Source: a virus (Duplodnaviria > Heunggongvirae > Uroviricota > Caudoviricetes). From it: a DNA stretch of 39,099 nucleotides. This document shows, piece by piece, positions 8,627 to 36,751 of the stretch. The notes under the pieces are model-generated. The model was not told the DNA's origin. It saw only the letters and a list, made by a program, of their open reading frames with translations, and ran no database searches. Position numbers and translations under genes: made by a program. Location of the stretch: the IMG/VR virus record IMGVR_UViG_2537561603_000005; one strand, 5' to 3'. Within the stretch, counting starts at the first letter, position 1. Every line of letters begins with the position of its first letter.

Positions 8627-9139
8627 ATGAATCGCGCTTCCCTGATTACCTTAATACATGTCGCAAAACGCGATCTACAGCTTGACCATGAAACCTATAC
8701 ATCCGTGCTGCTGGCAGCCACCGGCAAACCCAGTTGCCGGGATATGTCACCGGATGAGTTATCCCGCGTGCTGGATGTTTTCAAAAAACGCGGTTTTAAA
8801 GTTCGTCAGAAACCGGTTAACCGGGCCTTAAAACCGGGTACGGTGACCGCCAAAATTCGCGCCATCTGGAAAGTGATGCACCGGCAGGGCTTTATCGCTG
8901 ATGGCGGGGAAAACGCCCTTAACTGCTGGGTGAAATCGCAGACGGCCGCGCAGAACGGCGGTGAAGGTGTGGCTAACTGGCAGTGGCTGGAGCAACACCC
9001 CGCACTGGCCTCTGATGTGCTGGAGCGTCTCAAACGCTGGCACCGCCGCAAAATGCTGGATGTGCTGGGGATGTCAGCGCGTACAGTGATAAGTTATGAG
9101 CGCGTTTGCAGGCTGTATAAAAAATCATTCCCCCGTTAA
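8627..9139 (+). CDS. gemA: GemA-like protein (Mu gp16 family)
   Basis: N-terminus MNRASLITLIHVAKRDLQLDHETYTSVLLAATGKPSCRDMS matches the gp16/GemA family pattern as recalled; position before the activator gene. Confidence 0.65.
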   Translation: MNRASLITLIHVAKRDLQLDHETYTSVLLAATGKPSCRDMSPDELSRVLDVFKKRGFKVRQKPVNRALKPGTVTAKIRAIWKVMHRQGFIADGGENALNCWVKSQTAAQNGGEGVANWQWLEQHPALASDVLERLKRWHRRKMLDVLGMSARTVISYERVCRLYKKSFPR

Positions 9140-26157: not shown

Positions 26158-27502
26158 CACGCCGGGGCGTGGCTCCTTCCGTGGTGTGCCGTTCCTGGTT
26201 TATCAGGAGCAGCGGGAACGGGGCGGACGTAACATTGTGCGCCGTGAATACCCACTGCGTGAAAGCGGCGGTGCGGATGATCTGGGGCCAAAACTCCCGG
26301 AGTTCACATTCACGGTTCTGGTAACCGGAGACGATCTTCAGACACAGCGAAGCCGCCTGCGCGATGCGCTGCGTGCACCCGGTGCCGGTGAACTGATGCA
26401 CCCGGATTACGGCACGTTAAACGTGCTGATAAACAGCTTTGAAAGCCGTTATAACGCCAGCGAGCAGGGAACGGTTGAGTTCACGATCAACGTGATCCCC
26501 GCCAGTGACGATACCGCCCCTTCGGTGGCAGAAGATACGGCAGCTGCGCTGGAGCAGAAAAGCGGTTCAGCAATGAATCAGCTGTTTAACACGCTTTCAG
26601 ACGGCTGGACGGTGATTTCAGACGGTCTGCATGATGTTCAGGCCATGACCGACACCATCAGCGATAAGATTGATGCGCTGGAGAATGCCGTTTCGGGGAT
26701 GGGGATTGTGCAGGATATCAGTGCCTTTACGGCCAGTTTTACTGCCCTGAAAGGCAATGCCACCGCCCTGATTAATGCGCCCCGTCGCATGGCTGAATCG
26801 CTGGCCGGAATGTTTGCCGTGCTGACCGGGCTGCCCGGCGATCCTTCCCTGTCGCTGACCGGAAAAGCCGGAACGCCATCCGGCAGCCTGACCACAAACC
26901 GTGACAGCATGACAGAGCAGGCCATGCCGCAACTGTACCGCACACTTTCCTCCCTGCGTTACACCCTCAGCGAACAGGATGATCCACAGCGCCTGATTGG
27001 CCTGACGCCTGCGGCACAGAACAATATCCGTCTGCTGCGGAGCGTGATGCAGAGTGCAGCCCTGGTGTCGCAGGCGCAGACGGTCGGAAAACTGCTGGAT
27101 CAGGTCATCCGGCAGAATACGACGCACGTTCAGGATACTGACCGTTCGGGCGGACTGGCCTGGCTGGAAAGTTCTGCTGATGTGCAGCGTATCAACCGGG
27201 ATTTGAGCGATGCCATGGAACAACAGGTGCTGGATCTGTCCGCACAGGGCTATACCGGGACTGCCCTTGCATTACGTGATGCAGGGCTTGCGCTGACAGA
27301 AGATTTAACCACGCGGAGTGTTCATCTTCCCGGTGCTTTTCAGGTCATGGTTCGCACCACCGAACCGGCACTGGTCACGCTGTACCGTGCCACCGGCAAC
27401 AGCCGCCGCTGGCAGTATTTTGTCCGCAGAAACAATATCCCCGATCCGGTTTTTGTTCCGGGTGGCCGCAGCGTGGAGGTGATCAGTGAGCAGCAGGATT
27501 GA
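26144..27502 (+). CDS. N: DNA circulation protein N (Mu gp43-like)
   Basis: 452 aa following tape measure with overlapping start. Confidence 0.7.
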   Translation: MASTDTPGRGSFRGVPFLVYQEQRERGGRNIVRREYPLRESGGADDLGPKLPEFTFTVLVTGDDLQTQRSRLRDALRAPGAGELMHPDYGTLNVLINSFESRYNASEQGTVEFTINVIPASDDTAPSVAEDTAAALEQKSGSAMNQLFNTLSDGWTVISDGLHDVQAMTDTISDKIDALENAVSGMGIVQDISAFTASFTALKGNATALINAPRRMAESLAGMFAVLTGLPGDPSLSLTGKAGTPSGSLTTNRDSMTEQAMPQLYRTLSSLRYTLSEQDDPQRLIGLTPAAQNNIRLLRSVMQSAALVSQAQTVGKLLDQVIRQNTTHVQDTDRSGGLAWLESSADVQRINRDLSDAMEQQVLDLSAQGYTGTALALRDAGLALTEDLTTRSVHLPGAFQVMVRTTEPALVTLYRATGNSRRWQYFVRRNNIPDPVFVPGGRSVEVISEQQD

Positions 27503-33210: not shown

Positions 33211-33783
33211 ATGCTGATTGGGTATATCAGGGTGTCAACAAATGACCAGAATACGGCGCTACAGAGAAATGCGCTGGAATGTGCAGGATGTGAGCTGTTT
33301 TTCGAAGACAGAATAAGCGGTAAGACAAGGGAACGTCCCGGCCTTAAACGCGCATTAAAGCGACTCCGGCCAGGGGATACCCTGCTGGTCTGGAAACTGG
33401 ATCGTCTTGGACGTAGTATGCAGCACCTTGTCCTTTTAACAGAAGAACTCCGGCAGCGCGGCGTTAACTTCCGCAGCATTACGGACAATATTGATACATC
33501 CACTCCCATGGGACGTTTCTTTTTCCATATAATGGGCGCACTGGCGGAAATGGAGCGGGAACTCATTATTGAACGTACACGCGCGGGTCTTGCTGCTGCC
33601 CGTGCTCAGGGGCGTCATGGCGGCAGACCTCAGAAACTGACAGAGAAAGAACGGGAGCAAATCGCCCGTTTGCTGGCTAATGGCGAGTCCCGTAAACAAA
33701 TTGCACTGATATTTGATATTGGCCTTTCCACCCTTTATCGTTATTTTCCTGTCTCATCGGCTCCGTCACCAAAAGTACCGTGA
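33211..33783 (+). CDS. gin: serine DNA invertase (Gin/Hin/Pin family)
   Basis: N-terminal catalytic motif MLIGYIRVSTNDQNTALQRNAL with active-site Ser; C-terminal HTH; adjacent to the inverted-repeat-bounded segment. Confidence 0.9.
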   Translation: MLIGYIRVSTNDQNTALQRNALECAGCELFFEDRISGKTRERPGLKRALKRLRPGDTLLVWKLDRLGRSMQHLVLLTEELRQRGVNFRSITDNIDTSTPMGRFFFHIMGALAEMERELIIERTRAGLAAARAQGRHGGRPQKLTEKEREQIARLLANGESRKQIALIFDIGLSTLYRYFPVSSAPSPKVP

Positions 33784-33795
33784 CGCTTTTTTGAA

Positions 33796-33838
33796 TTTCC
33801 GCAAAACACATATTTTTCAGCGGTCGCTATTCTGACTC
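33796..33838 (+). promoter_or_regulatory. candidate late-type promoter upstream of esterase-like gene (shared motif copy 3)
   Basis: TTTCCGCAAAACACATATTTTTCAGCGGTCGCTATTCTGACTC shares TTCCGCAAA, a T5 run and CTGACTC with the lys-upstream element. Confidence 0.4.
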
Positions 33839-33868
33839 TGTTTAATTCAGAAACAGGCAGAAAAGACG

Positions 33869-35947
33869 ATGTCAGACTCCCAGTGGAAAATGCTCTCCGC
33901 CATGCCCGGAGAGTTTTCAGTCAAGGTTGCCGGTGGCACGGTGGCATTTATTGAAAGTCCTTTCAGGCCTTCGGGTAATAAAGGGGGGATCACCTTCGCA
34001 GACTGTGTGATCCGCTTCAGCACGAAAGAGCCATTATGGGTAATGCCGGTATCCGGCAATCCCAGCGCAGAAATCACCAGTTCAGGCGTGACCGGCATTA
34101 TTCCGATCACATCTGACGTGGCCGGAACACTCACGCCTTCTGACTGGAATGCACCGGATAACGCCGGACCGTCTGGCGGTACAAATGGCAGCAGTACAGA
34201 GCCGGAGTATTACTATGTGCTTCCACTGGCCGGGCAGTCCAACGGGATGGCCTACGGTGAAGGGCTTCCGCTACCGGCTTCATTCGACCGCCCTGAACCG
34301 CGCATTAAGCAACTGGCACGTCGCAGCACGGTAACGCCAGATGGTACGTCGTGCACATATAACGACATCATTCCCGCAGACCACTGCCTGCATGATGTGC
34401 AGGACATGAGCGGGATAAACCACCCGAAAGCTGATCTGGCAAAAGGCCAGTACGGGACTGTCGGTCAGGGGCTGCATATTGCCAAAAAACTGCTGCCTTA
34501 CATCCCGCAGAATGCCGGGATACTTCTGGTGCCCTGTTGCCGTGGCGGGTCAGCATTCACCACCGGGGATGACGGCTCATTCAGTGAGGCCAGCGGTGCT
34601 TCCGCTGATTCTTCACGCTGGGGTGCCGGTAAACCCCTGTATCAGGACCTGGTAAGCCGCACCAGAGCGGCGCTGGCGAAGAACCCGAAAAACAAACTTC
34701 TGGCCGTGGTATGGATGCAGGGAGAGGCAGACCTTGCATCGGGAAGTCAGCAGCATAATGGTTTATTCACGACCATGGTTCAGCAGTTCAGAACTGACCT
34801 GTCTCCGCTTGCTGCGCAGTGTGTGAGAGGAAATACCACCACGGTGCCGTGGATTTGCGGTGATACCACGTATTACTGGAAAAACCTTGGCACCGATAAA
34901 TATGAGGCAGTATACGGTGGCTACAAAGGCAAGGAAGCACAGAAAATTTTCTTTGTACCGTTCCTGACGGATGAGAATGGACAGAACACGCCAACGAATG
35001 CTCCGGCGGAAGACCCGGATATTGTGGCTGTCGGGTATTACGGTGCGGCATCCCGTACCCAGGGCAGTTTTGTCTCCACACAGCGTGACAGCCATTTCAG
35101 CTCATGGGCACGCAGGGGCATCATTTCTGACCGTCTGGCCTCAGCCATTCTGCTCCATGCGGGACGCACACCTGAAGTGATGCAGGGACCGGTTGTGACA
35201 CAGCCGGATGAAAAACCATCACCTGACACGCCATCAACACCATCGCCGGATACACCCTCCACACCACCGGCTGACACCACGACGATGAGCACCCTGTTTG
35301 CTTACCGGGCATCAGAGTCTGAAGGACAGCTGGCACCACAGGGCTGGACTGCCGGAGGCGGTAAGGCCCAAATCGTGGATGATGCCGGAGCAGGTAGTGG
35401 TAAGGCCATGAAACTGACCAAGGAAACAGGCAAATCCTCCTGGTACCTTGAGCATGATGCCGGTAATGGTGCGGACCTGCTGGGTAAAGGTGGCCTTGTC
35501 AGTTGCCGGTTTAAGGTTGATGGTGCGCTTACGGCTAATCAGTACGCGATGGCGCTGTACTGGCCGGTTTCTGCCCTGCCGCAAGGGGTTACTCTGGAAG
35601 GTAATGCCGGTCATAACCTGCTGGCATCGTTTTACGTTCAGAGCGATGCCACAGACCTTAACGTGATGTACCACAAGGGCAATACGGCGCAAAACACGAA
35701 ACTGGGGTCATTCGGTGCATTTAATAACGAATGGCATACGCTGGGCTTCCGTTTTGCCGGTAACAACAGTATTGAGGTGACGCCGGTCATTGATGGTAAG
35801 GACGGGACACCATTCATGCTGTCGCAGTCTCCGGTCGGCACGTTTACGGCAGACAAGTTGCGCGTGACCGATATCACTAACGGTGCAACATACCCGGTGC
35901 TGATTGACAGCATTGTGGTGGAGGTTAATACCCCGTCAGCGGGATAA
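33869..35947 (+). CDS. SGNH/SASA-type carbohydrate esterase-like protein with Pro/Thr linker and C-terminal lectin-like domain (accessory gene)
   Basis: LPLAGQSNGMAYGE (GQSN esterase motif) about 115 aa from the N-terminus; linker PDEKPSPDTPSTPSPDTPSTPPADTT; beta-rich C-terminal domain. Confidence 0.55.
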   Translation: MSDSQWKMLSAMPGEFSVKVAGGTVAFIESPFRPSGNKGGITFADCVIRFSTKEPLWVMPVSGNPSAEITSSGVTGIIPITSDVAGTLTPSDWNAPDNAGPSGGTNGSSTEPEYYYVLPLAGQSNGMAYGEGLPLPASFDRPEPRIKQLARRSTVTPDGTSCTYNDIIPADHCLHDVQDMSGINHPKADLAKGQYGTVGQGLHIAKKLLPYIPQNAGILLVPCCRGGSAFTTGDDGSFSEASGASADSSRWGAGKPLYQDLVSRTRAALAKNPKNKLLAVVWMQGEADLASGSQQHNGLFTTMVQQFRTDLSPLAAQCVRGNTTTVPWICGDTTYYWKNLGTDKYEAVYGGYKGKEAQKIFFVPFLTDENGQNTPTNAPAEDPDIVAVGYYGAASRTQGSFVSTQRDSHFSSWARRGIISDRLASAILLHAGRTPEVMQGPVVTQPDEKPSPDTPSTPSPDTPSTPPADTTTMSTLFAYRASESEGQLAPQGWTAGGGKAQIVDDAGAGSGKAMKLTKETGKSSWYLEHDAGNGADLLGKGGLVSCRFKVDGALTANQYAMALYWPVSALPQGVTLEGNAGHNLLASFYVQSDATDLNVMYHKGNTAQNTKLGSFGAFNNEWHTLGFRFAGNNSIEVTPVIDGKDGTPFMLSQSPVGTFTADKLRVTDITNGATYPVLIDSIVVEVNTPSAG

Positions 35948-35961
35948 CGGGATAAAAAAAT

Positions 35962-35996
35962 CCCGCCAGTCAAAGAGCTATTTGTTGACTGGCGGG
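35962..35996. terminator. strong hairpin downstream of esterase-like gene
   Basis: Perfect 12-bp stem CCCGCCAGTCAA / TTGACTGGCGGG with 11-nt loop; A7 tract upstream (a U-tract on the minus strand) and no T-run downstream. Confidence 0.5.
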
Positions 35997-36111
35997 GTGA
36001 TATTCCAAACCCATTAAGGAATACAACAACTCAATTAAAGAAGGCCATTATTTACGCAGTTACTTTTTAACCGGGAACTGTTTCTGTAGTCAATATCAAA
36101 GGTAAGGTTAT

Positions 36112-36294
36112 ATGACATTTGTTCATACAATGCTGCTTTATTTCTGCACGGCGGTATGTGCGTTATATCTGGTGAGTGGTGGTTATAAGGCCATCAGAAA
36201 TTATGTTCGCCGCAAAATTGATGATGCAGCAACTGAAAAACTTAGTAAAACAGCGCAGGCCGCCTCACTCCCAAAAGACCCGACCCAGCCCTGA
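36112..36294 (+). CDS. small hypothetical membrane protein
   Basis: 60 aa with N-terminal hydrophobic helix (MLLYFCTAVCALYLVSGGY); SD-like AAGGTAAGG upstream; AT-rich island. Confidence 0.3.
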   Translation: MTFVHTMLLYFCTAVCALYLVSGGYKAIRNYVRRKIDDAATEKLSKTAQAASLPKDPTQP

Positions 36295-36329
36295 TTGCAG
36301 GACTGTATTCCCGCATAAGGAGGATATAC

Positions 36330-36584
36330 ATGCCAGAAATTAAAGGCACCGTCACTGAAGACCTGGTTAAACAGGCTCTGTATTCCGGTGAAGTAAATAA
36401 ATTACTGAAAGCGCAGGTCCGCAAGGATTTTGAGGCACAAATCGACACTTACGTTGATGAGGTGCTGGCAAAACTTATTGGGCCAGCAGCTGCGACCAGT
36501 GATGCTGATAATGAGCCGAAAACCGAAGCACAGCCAGAGCAACCAGAACCGGCTCAGCCCGGAACTGACAGCACCATGATGTAA
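36330..36584 (+). CDS. small hypothetical acidic protein
   Basis: 84 aa; strong SD AAGGAGG 8 nt upstream of ATG; followed by a hairpin. Confidence 0.4.
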   Translation: MPEIKGTVTEDLVKQALYSGEVNKLLKAQVRKDFEAQIDTYVDEVLAKLIGPAAATSDADNEPKTEAQPEQPEPAQPGTDSTMM

Positions 36585-36590
36585 CAATAC

Positions 36591-36620
36591 AAACCGGCAG
36601 TTTCTCCTGCCGGTTTGACA
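36591..36620 (+). terminator. hairpin after small gene
   Basis: Perfect 10-bp stem AAACCGGCAG / CTGCCGGTTT with 6-nt loop. Confidence 0.45.
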
Positions 36621-36751
36621 CCAATGAAAACATCTTTACCGCTATCCAGCTATATGTAATCGCTGGATAGTATTTCGTATTCAGAAATACAGCTGCTTAT
36701 GGAGCAGTCAATCCAGCTTCCCCATCCTGGCAGACAAATGAACCTGTATCA

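Follow-up and report, generated by a model that had tools for sequence, protein, structure and literature searches.

The 39,099-nucleotide stretch of viral DNA analysed here (IMG/VR record IMGVR_UViG_2537561603_000005; hereafter the window) apparently holds a complete Mu-like prophage, in which A, B, gemA, a C-type activator gene, lys, and the head and tail genes were recognised. Between the DNA invertase gene gin and the com-mom genes it carries an intact open reading frame (ORF; positions 33869–35947, plus strand), which extends from an ATG start codon to a stop codon at 35945–35947 and encodes a protein of 692 amino acids. The results make it probable that this gene encodes a NanS-p-type sialate 9-O-acetylesterase that is carried as cassette cargo by the Mu-like prophage, expressed late, and released at lysis. 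Since the window from approximately position 38321 onward is identical (100%) to a chromosomal fimbrial usher gene of Escherichia coli, the host is E. coli. An earlier interpretation of this DNA (the sequence-only reading) had reported a 692-amino-acid ORF with a GQSN block, and its position, strand, and length agree with those found here.

By every sequence criterion, the predicted product is an intact sialate 9-O-acetylesterase of the NanS/NanS-p type. A phmmer search against the Protein Data Bank (PDB) aligned amino acids 109–428 with E. coli NanS (YjhS; PDB 3PT5) over 320 residues (E = 1.7e-118). The search with hidden Markov models (HMMs) that had been proposed as a check on the assignment to the SASA/SGNH O-acetylesterases bore it out, as the Pfam SASA model (PF03629) scored 49.2 bits against a gathering cut-off of 24.8 (E = 6.8e-13). 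This model covers amino acids 191–312 only, and the full catalytic domain (amino acids 111–433; 34199–35167, plus strand) is supported by the 3PT5 alignment and the conserved blocks. Catalytic residues were assigned from this alignment and from the published description of 3PT5, in which the blocks read GQSNA, RGGSAF, MQGEFD, and R-x-SHFS, with Ser19 and His301 (PMC10792757). Their counterparts in the prophage protein are GQSNG at amino acids 122–126 (block I; part of the block LPLAGQSNGMAYGE, amino acids 118–131, quoted in the sequence-only reading; Ser124 aligned to Ser19), RGGSAF at amino acids 225–230 (block II), MQGEAD at amino acids 283–288 (block III, the (H/M)QGE motif of SASA/CE6 enzymes), and RDSHFS at amino acids 406–411 (block V; His409 aligned to His301). 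Chromosomal NanS and the prophage protein thus have in common GQSN, RGGSAF, MQGE, R-x-SHFS, the Ser/His pair, and the lack of an Asp in block V. They differ in that NanS belongs to the nan regulon and has a single domain, whereas the prophage protein is phage-encoded and carries a further N-terminal domain as well as two linkers and a lectin-like module. Esterase activity on 5-N-acetyl-9-O-acetylneuraminic acid (Neu5,9Ac2) is predicted from the conserved residues.

The catalytic domain is followed by a Pro/Thr/Ser-rich linker (linker 2; amino acids 434–473; 35168–35287, plus strand), which contains QPDEKPSPDTPSTPSPDTPSTPPADTTT, and by a C-terminal lectin-like carbohydrate-binding module (amino acids 474–692; 35288–35944, plus strand). 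The Pro/Thr-rich linker and the beta-rich C-terminal domain of the sequence-only reading were hence recovered, the latter as the lectin-like jelly-roll of NanS-p. Amino acids 474–688 match the crystallised C-terminal NanS-p module of phage phi24B (PDB 6YP6; E = 1.7e-99), and the module is also recognised by Pfam DUF6645 (PF20350; E = 2.5e-68). Tyr559, Tyr564, Tyr589, and Phe659 are the conserved equivalents of Y510, Y515, Y540, and F611 in the phi24B protein vb_24B_21, which have been proposed as sugar-binding residues of that module (PMC10462455). The ratio of nonsynonymous to synonymous substitution rates (dN/dS) was 0.11–0.18 for both the catalytic and the lectin-like domain. An NCBIfam search with the esterase gave no match; some close relatives already bear the RefSeq label "sialate O-acetylesterase".

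The sequence-only reading had likened the whole architecture to that of prophage NanS-p proteins, which holds for the SASA domain and the lectin-like module but not for the N-terminus. Published NanS-p proteins consist of three domains, namely DUF1737, SASA, and the C-terminal module (PMC10462455). DUF1737, which is about 55 amino acids long with one helix and three strands (bioRxiv 10.64898/2026.04.10.717836), is missing here and, judging from sequence comparison and structure prediction, is replaced by an unrelated, uncharacterised six-strand beta domain of approximately 80 amino acids. This N-terminal domain (hereafter N-domain; amino acids 1–82; 33869–34114, plus strand) is all-beta, belongs to no known family, and is specific to Mu-like prophages. 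With amino acids 1–113, no Pfam match to DUF1737 (PF08410) or any other family was obtained even at an E-value of 10, and a PHROGs search yielded nothing meaningful. AlphaFold2 predicted a six-strand all-beta domain at amino acids 7–79 with moderate confidence (block-mean predicted local distance difference test score [pLDDT] of ~64–83), followed by a disordered linker that reaches to about amino acid 112. The acidic, Gly/Ser/Pro/Asn-rich linker 1 (amino acids 83–110; 34115–34198, plus strand) is likewise predicted to be disordered (pLDDT <50 from amino acid 83), and its 3' end coincides with the recombination joint with lambdoid alleles.

The same division is apparent among homologous proteins. 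Precomputed Pfam assignments place PF08410 on lambdoid proteins of ~647 amino acids and on none of those with ~680–692 amino acids. In a large protein database, proteins of 678–692 amino acids without PF08410 aligned with the prophage esterase end to end at 83–96% identity, whereas for the relatives of ~647 amino acids with PF08410 the alignment was limited to the C-terminal 84–86% (up to 91% identity). With the N-domain alone, a word-indexed search for homologues yielded fragments only, and an HMM of the domain detected no paralogue in the rest of the prophage. When amino acids 1–105 were searched exhaustively with phmmer against 1.84 billion cluster representatives, the matches were limited to two fragments belonging to this family and a single additional protein (P0126; 30% identity), which is the start of another esterase at a contig end and consists of an N-domain, a Pro/Thr linker, and EYYFVIPVAGQSN. 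Its gene belongs to a more distant Mu-like prophage, where two small genes separate it from a gin-like invertase gene upstream. That this search added P0126 alone is explained by the full-length Mu-type proteins probably being represented by lambdoid cluster representatives (50% identity). Comparison with the allele of the second Mu-like lineage described below, the type of prophage Sp18, gave a dN of 0.30 for the N-domain with saturated dS, so that dN/dS was not computable for this domain; the alignment indicates that the N-domain is under purifying selection between the two lineages.

A late-type promoter for the esterase gene is well supported by sequence. The 85-bp gap following gin contains a putative late-promoter activator box (TTTTGAATTTCCGCAAAAC; 33789–33807, plus strand), which is an imperfect dyad of the form TTTTG-N9-CAAAA, and 20 nucleotides after it the -10-like hexamer TATTCT (33828–33833, plus strand) without a -35 hexamer. 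On the assumption that the transcription start lies 6–7 nucleotides after TATTCT, the box extends from about -51 to -33. In the late promoters of Mu, a -10 hexamer is present without a -35 hexamer, the site of the activator C is a 16-bp imperfect dyad centred at -43.5, and the region from -52 to -34 is required (PMC2582627). The geometry of the esterase box and -10 hexamer matches that of these C-dependent promoters (Plys, PI, PP, as well as Pmom), including the overlap of the dyad, centred near -42/-43, with the -35 region, and the site directly after gin is the one that Pmom occupies in Mu.

The sequence-only reading had noted that the element upstream of the esterase gene also precedes the lysis and head genes, and this was confirmed. 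Near-identical boxes are present upstream of lys (9627–9645) and of the head gene I (17812–17830), each followed after 21 nucleotides by a -10-like hexamer (TACGCT and TATGCT, respectively), and the consensus of the boxes is TTYTGAwnTYCCGCAAAwC. On both strands of the window, the box matched at lys, I, and the esterase gene only (0.01–0.05 matches expected by chance); when the pattern was built from the lys and I sites alone, the esterase site was the sole further match at ≤3 mismatches (0.05 expected). In the Sp18-type lineage the box (CTGAATTAACGCAAAA) and the -10 hexamer (TATGAT) retain their spacing while the spacer sequence is different, and a complete Sp18-type phage has the box at exactly three sites, again upstream of lys, I, and the esterase gene. 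No late box was found upstream of com-mom at ≤3 mismatches, and a look-alike in the variable slot downstream of the esterase gene was rejected for having about six mismatches and no conservation. Upstream of the baseplate gene P, the region 27380–27500 (TTTTGTCCGCAGAAAC...) resembles the Mu P promoter region (GGCCCGCAGGAAC...). It does not match the box shared by lys, I, and the esterase gene at ≤3 mismatches, which suggests that the late promoters of this phage comprise at least two classes of sequence.

The box is presumably read by a C-type late activator of the Mor/C family (9210–9632, plus strand; Pfam Mor, E = 4.9e-31), which is encoded directly upstream of lys, as in Mu; the transcription start and the dependence on the activator are inferred. 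The predicted activator has the same length as Mu C (140 amino acids) and is 40% identical to it over 136 aligned residues, compared with 27% identity to Mor. The box sequence itself has no match in Mu, which fits a diverged pair of activator and binding site. In the window, gemA (8627–9139) is directly followed by the C-type activator gene and then by lys, whereas in Mu gemA and C are separated by mor and three small genes. The ORFs scanned included no separate Mor homologue, and the regulatory cascade from middle to late genes may differ from that of Mu.

The sequence-only reading had also stated that Mu has no gene at this position and that the esterase gene is an insertion, and comparison with Mu confirmed both. 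In Mu, the gap between gin (end at 35673) and com (start at 35768) is 94 bp, as opposed to 3,473 bp in the window, where gin ends at 33783 and com starts at ~37302, or at 37257 if the longest ORF is taken. Within the stretch from gin to mom, Mu DNA aligns to gin (69% nucleotide identity) and mom (71%) only. By this comparison, an accessory cassette of 3.4 kb has been inserted, relative to Mu, between gin and com-mom; it contains, in this order, the late promoter, the esterase gene, a strong hairpin, genes for DUF1378 and DUF826 proteins, and a variable slot. Its left boundary is the gin-type invertase gene (33211–33783, plus strand; Pfam Resolvase and HTH_7). On the right, a Mu-like element, ATCGATCG-N8-GATCGATT (37235–37258, plus strand), which in Mu directly follows gin, reappears upstream of com, and conservation with sister loci returns at 37207; the extra segment was therefore delimited to ~33784–37206. 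Beyond it lie com (37302–37502, plus strand; Pfam Zn_ribbon_Com) and the overlapping mom (to 38193, plus strand; Pfam Mom), whose start near 37456 was taken from the annotation of the homologues in two related loci (L001 and L006). The com-mom upstream region contains Dam GATC sites in and near the Mu-like element (37235–37258 and 37169–37172), and the distance between element and com is shorter than in Mu. An insertion of the cassette downstream of an ancestral Pmom, which it would have hijacked, is unsupported: the Dam-site element of Pmom stayed with com, 3.4 kb downstream, and the esterase box resembles the lys and I boxes. Compared with the late promoters of Mu, the one described here thus drives a gene that Mu lacks, from a box that Mu lacks, by means of an activator only 40% identical to Mu C.

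The gene is not a one-off insertion; comparison of loci indicates that it is fixed at the gin-com site in two diverged Mu-like lineages of E. coli, including the Sp18 type. In IMG/VR, the N-domain was found in 34 viral contigs that form two identity groups (97–100% and 56–59%). All 34 loci fuse it to SASA and, where the contig is long enough, also to the C-terminal module, and every one of these loci is Mu-like, as is one further locus (L005). Within the reach of the contigs they share the order gp48, S, invertible segment, gin, esterase gene, DUF1378, DUF826, variable slot, com, and mom. Among 5,426 complete E. coli genomes, 28 carry the N-domain of the window type and 205 that of the second type (about 4% together). 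The carriers include O157:H7 strains, and the protein is annotated only as "DUF6645 domain-containing protein". A scan of all species-representative genomes of GTDB revealed no N-domain. The additional locus L005 (GCA_037428405.1, 9353–10000) represents a third, distant Mu-like lineage, in which two small genes are located between the invertase and esterase genes; the region upstream of its esterase gene (TTATTCCGTGCCACACTC) is reminiscent of the C-site region of Mu Pmom (TTATGCCCCAATAACCACACTC).

The second lineage includes Sp18 of E. coli O157:H7 Sakai, which is reported to be intact, spontaneously induced, and efficiently packaged (PMC2669165), and to which the JNE Mu-like phages have been described as similar (PMC10132054). 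Sp18 and its relatives (e.g., Mu_JNE082796 in LC727881) show identical synteny of gin, the gene for N-domain, SASA, and carbohydrate-binding module, DUF1378, DUF826, and com, and the same three-site box pattern, but carry a diverged esterase allele. In the LC727881 phage, which is of the Sp18 type and is inserted in Stx phages, mom is replaced after com by an ORF of 350 amino acids that by its appearance is a candidate C5 DNA methyltransferase gene (L002, 10286–11338); if so, a different DNA-modification gene is located behind the same com leader.

Among known systems, the closest to the prophage esterase are the NanS-p proteins of lambdoid and Shiga toxin (Stx) phages such as L0105/z1466 of 933W and vb_24B_21 (gp84) of phi24B. 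These have the same SASA/SGNH domain and DUF6645 module, the same Pro/Thr linker, and a late-gene control signal, and are likewise prophage-borne. They differ in having DUF1737 in place of the unrelated six-strand beta domain, in being carried by lambdoid phages rather than a transposable phage of the Mu-like myovirus type, in being encoded between Q/stx and the holin gene S instead of between gin and com-mom, and in being controlled by Q antitermination instead of a C-type activator box. Of the best 80 DUF1737-type loci in IMG/VR, 79 are lambdoid and follow the order Q, methylase or stx, then nanS-p, DUF1378, holin, and lysozyme. Amino acid identity to lambdoid alleles reaches 89.8% for SASA and 92.1% for the C-terminal module (P0035), with no alignable similarity at the N-terminus, and in a DNA comparison the homology shared with the lambdoid locus L007 (89.3%) extends from nucleotide 34199, which corresponds to codon 111 (EPEYY), to the stop codon. 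By comparison, the Sp18-type allele is 58.5% identical in the N-domain, 69.6% in SASA, and 74.2% in the C-terminal module, and another protein (P0027) is 94.9% identical in the N-domain but only 82.0% and 80.6% in SASA and the C-terminal module, respectively. This pattern indicates that the enzyme and lectin parts are freely exchanged with the lambdoid pool, whereas the N-domain stays with the Mu-like backbone. To judge from these alignments, the shared core is a recombination bridge between Mu-like and lambdoid prophages. Hybrid loci were also observed. One (L049; IMGVR_UViG_2617270962_000007) is lambdoid on its left side (methylase, DUF1737) and Mu-like on its right (DUF826, com, mom), with the esterase core as the joint, whereas another from the same source genome (L016; IMGVR_UViG_2617270962_000005) and a third (L011) combine the Mu-type N-domain with a subsequent DUF1378 of the lambdoid type (52% identity). 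These junctions suggest reciprocal recombination of a Mu-like and a lambdoid prophage via the shared esterase gene, probably as a chromosomal inversion, although assembly artefacts are possible.

With respect to function, the C-type activator of the phage would switch the esterase gene on late in lytic growth. The N-terminus has no evident signal peptide, so the protein would exit from the cell at lysis. The released esterase would then strip 9-O-acetyl groups from free and mucin-bound sialic acids, which would thereby become open to sialidases and to E. coli sialic acid catabolism. NanS-p enzymes are known to deacetylate Neu5,9Ac2 and mucin glycans and to support growth on Neu5,9Ac2 (PMC8065619), and in Stx phages nanS-p belongs to the late genes and is strongly induced (PMC8065619, PMC10462455). 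The proposal of the sequence-only reading that the enzyme is virion-associated or lysis-released is plausible.

A more specific role may be considered for the N-domain. In phi24B, cryo-electron microscopy located DUF1737 in hexameric form on the central hexons of the T=9 capsid, and cleavage was proposed to release the esterase and lectin parts (bioRxiv 10.64898/2026.04.10.717836). The N-domain may be the counterpart of DUF1737 in the Mu lineage, that is, a docking module on a flexible linker that would fix the enzyme to the phage's own virion. Such a tether is the single most likely role of the domain, albeit a tentative one, and is preferred by analogy, because of the position of the domain where a capsid anchor has been proven, the disordered linker, the phage-type specificity, and the purifying selection. 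It is a more doubtful step to suppose that the domain docks to a Mu-like capsid or tail and that two unrelated morphotypes accordingly would display the same esterase via interchangeable, phage-specific anchors.

Several points weigh against this interpretation of the gene and its N-domain. The box found at lys, I, and the esterase gene has no match at ≤3 mismatches upstream of P and is consequently not universal among the late promoters of the phage. The strong hairpin after the stop codon lacks a U-run on the plus strand and so does not define the 3' end of the esterase transcript. No virion protein that co-diverges with the N-domain (58.5%) could be singled out between the two Mu-like lineages, the most diverged ones being protease I (74%), sheath L (75%), and fibre S (78%). 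Furthermore, the link between N-domain and phage type may have a neutral explanation in recombination: a 5' segment without homologous flanks cannot be transferred by crossovers in the core, so that the observed partition would be expected even without functional coupling, and the hybrid loci indicate that such crossovers do occur.

This last point is central to the reading that the N-domain is unrelated to the virion and forms an extra carbohydrate-binding or oligomerisation module of a soluble enzyme released at lysis, its tracking of the phage type resulting merely from the limits of core recombination. Such a role is possible and nearly as likely as the virion tether. However, the protein already contains a dedicated lectin-like module, the domain is followed by a 30-residue disordered linker exactly where lambdoid alleles have a proven capsid anchor, and neither another fusion nor an occurrence outside Mu-like prophages was found in the 1.84 billion representatives, the GTDB species genomes, and IMG/VR, which would be unusual for a sugar binder.

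An improbable alternative to late expression and release at lysis is that the esterase is a lysogen fitness gene, which is expressed from the repressed prophage for host nutrition and for which the late-type promoter is irrelevant or leaky. Lysogens of enterohaemorrhagic E. coli can indeed grow on Neu5,9Ac2 as sole carbon source by means of nanS-p (PMC8065619), and the gene has accessory neighbours (such as mom and the variable slot) at the end of the prophage. This view is difficult to reconcile with the upstream region (33784–33868), in which no sigma-70 consensus promoter was detected and the sole recognisable signal is the conserved activator-dependent late box. Moreover, without a signal peptide the cytoplasmic enzyme of an intact lysogen would not reach mucin, and nanS-p of Stx phages rises upon induction. 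A benefit derived from a lysing subpopulation is compatible with the favoured explanation of a late-expressed enzyme released at lysis and is not a rival to it.

The weakest reading, and a highly improbable one, is the "receptor-modifying" role proposed in the sequence-only reading, according to which the enzyme would deacetylate a bacterial surface glycan (O-antigen or O-acetylated K1 polysialic acid) and thus aid adsorption or block re-adsorption of progeny. Phage G7C has an O-antigen deacetylase as its tailspike (gp63.1), SGNH esterase domains occur in phage tail proteins, and amino acids 211–312 weakly match a PHROG tail protein (E = 1.9e-6), but most E. coli are not known to carry surface sialic acid, the catalytic domain is close to NanS (E = 1.7e-118) and shares ~90% identity with lambdoid NanS-p alleles, the lectin module has kept its sugar-binding residues, and nothing in the analysis ties the protein to the tail. 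Although receptor modification has been raised for NanS-p in general by a review (PMC8065619), the demonstrated substrates of such enzymes are Neu5,9Ac2 and O-acetylated sialic acids of mucin, and the closest characterised relatives deacetylate Neu5,9Ac2 in both its free and its mucin-bound form, a glycan of the host rather than a phage receptor (PMC8065619, PMC8319020).

Downstream of the esterase gene, the strong hairpin mentioned above (35962–35996; strand unassigned) has a stem of 12–14 bp and a U-run on the minus strand only (AUUUUUUUAU). The surrounding 71-nucleotide stretch (35940–36010) folds to -30.7 kcal/mol on the plus strand (z = -6.9). The hairpin resembles a leftward terminator; there is no obvious leftward gene nearby, and the reverse ORF of the variable slot has its own terminator at 36617–36590. 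It is followed by genes for a small DUF1378 membrane protein of 60 amino acids (36112–36294, plus strand; Pfam PF07125, E = 8e-35) and a small acidic DUF826 protein of 84 amino acids (36330–36584, plus strand; Pfam PF05696, E = 2.2e-15), both of which accompany the esterase gene. In lambdoid phages DUF1378 occupies the equivalent position behind nanS-p, as it does in every complete Mu-type locus, and lambdoid nanS-p is likewise succeeded by DUF1378 and a small acidic protein. As the same genes follow in lambdoid phages, the esterase gene and its small downstream companions appear to be a unit common to the two phage types.

The variable cargo slot (36585–37206) contains a minus-strand ORF of 100 amino acids (36752–37054) and the terminator-like hairpin at 36617–36590. 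The homology shared with L006 and L002 ends at 36583/36613 and is regained at 37207, and the content of the slot differs between loci. The reverse ORF has no family match and a promoter-like site at 37008–36980, and neither its product nor the DUF1378 and DUF826 proteins gave a match in PADLOC. In the closest relative (L006, 3392–4526) the slot holds two reverse genes, one of which is HEPN-like (PADLOC HEPN_IX, E = 8.4e-7), and in the Sp18-type phage (L002, ~9550–10020) it holds other small ORFs. The slot between DUF826 and com looks like a hotspot for defence or accessory genes at the right end of Mu-like prophages.

The enzyme family identified here is well known and can already be recognised from some database names, which makes the core finding ordinary. 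Three features appear to be undescribed in the literature searched, namely the new N-terminal domain in the Mu-type architecture, the control by a C-type late promoter, and the recombination bridge between Mu-like and lambdoid prophages. Counts of nanS-p copies that rely on DUF1737 or on a lambdoid context could miss the Mu-type allele, including in O157:H7. NanS-p is regarded as fitness- or virulence-associated cargo of Shiga toxin phages, and whether it benefits the lysogen or the phage particle is an open debate, which has been sharpened by the 2026 finding that DUF1737 is anchored to the phi24B capsid. The Mu-type allele represents a natural domain swap in this respect, in which the same enzyme and lectin module are placed under late control with another N-terminal module and in the context of another particle. 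If the N-domain does not bind the virion, the lysogen-nutrition reading would gain. If it does, the case for a phage-centred role such as mucus adherence or penetration would be greatly strengthened, the N-domain would constitute a new family of anchor domains, and virion display rather than lysogen nutrition would be the selected function.

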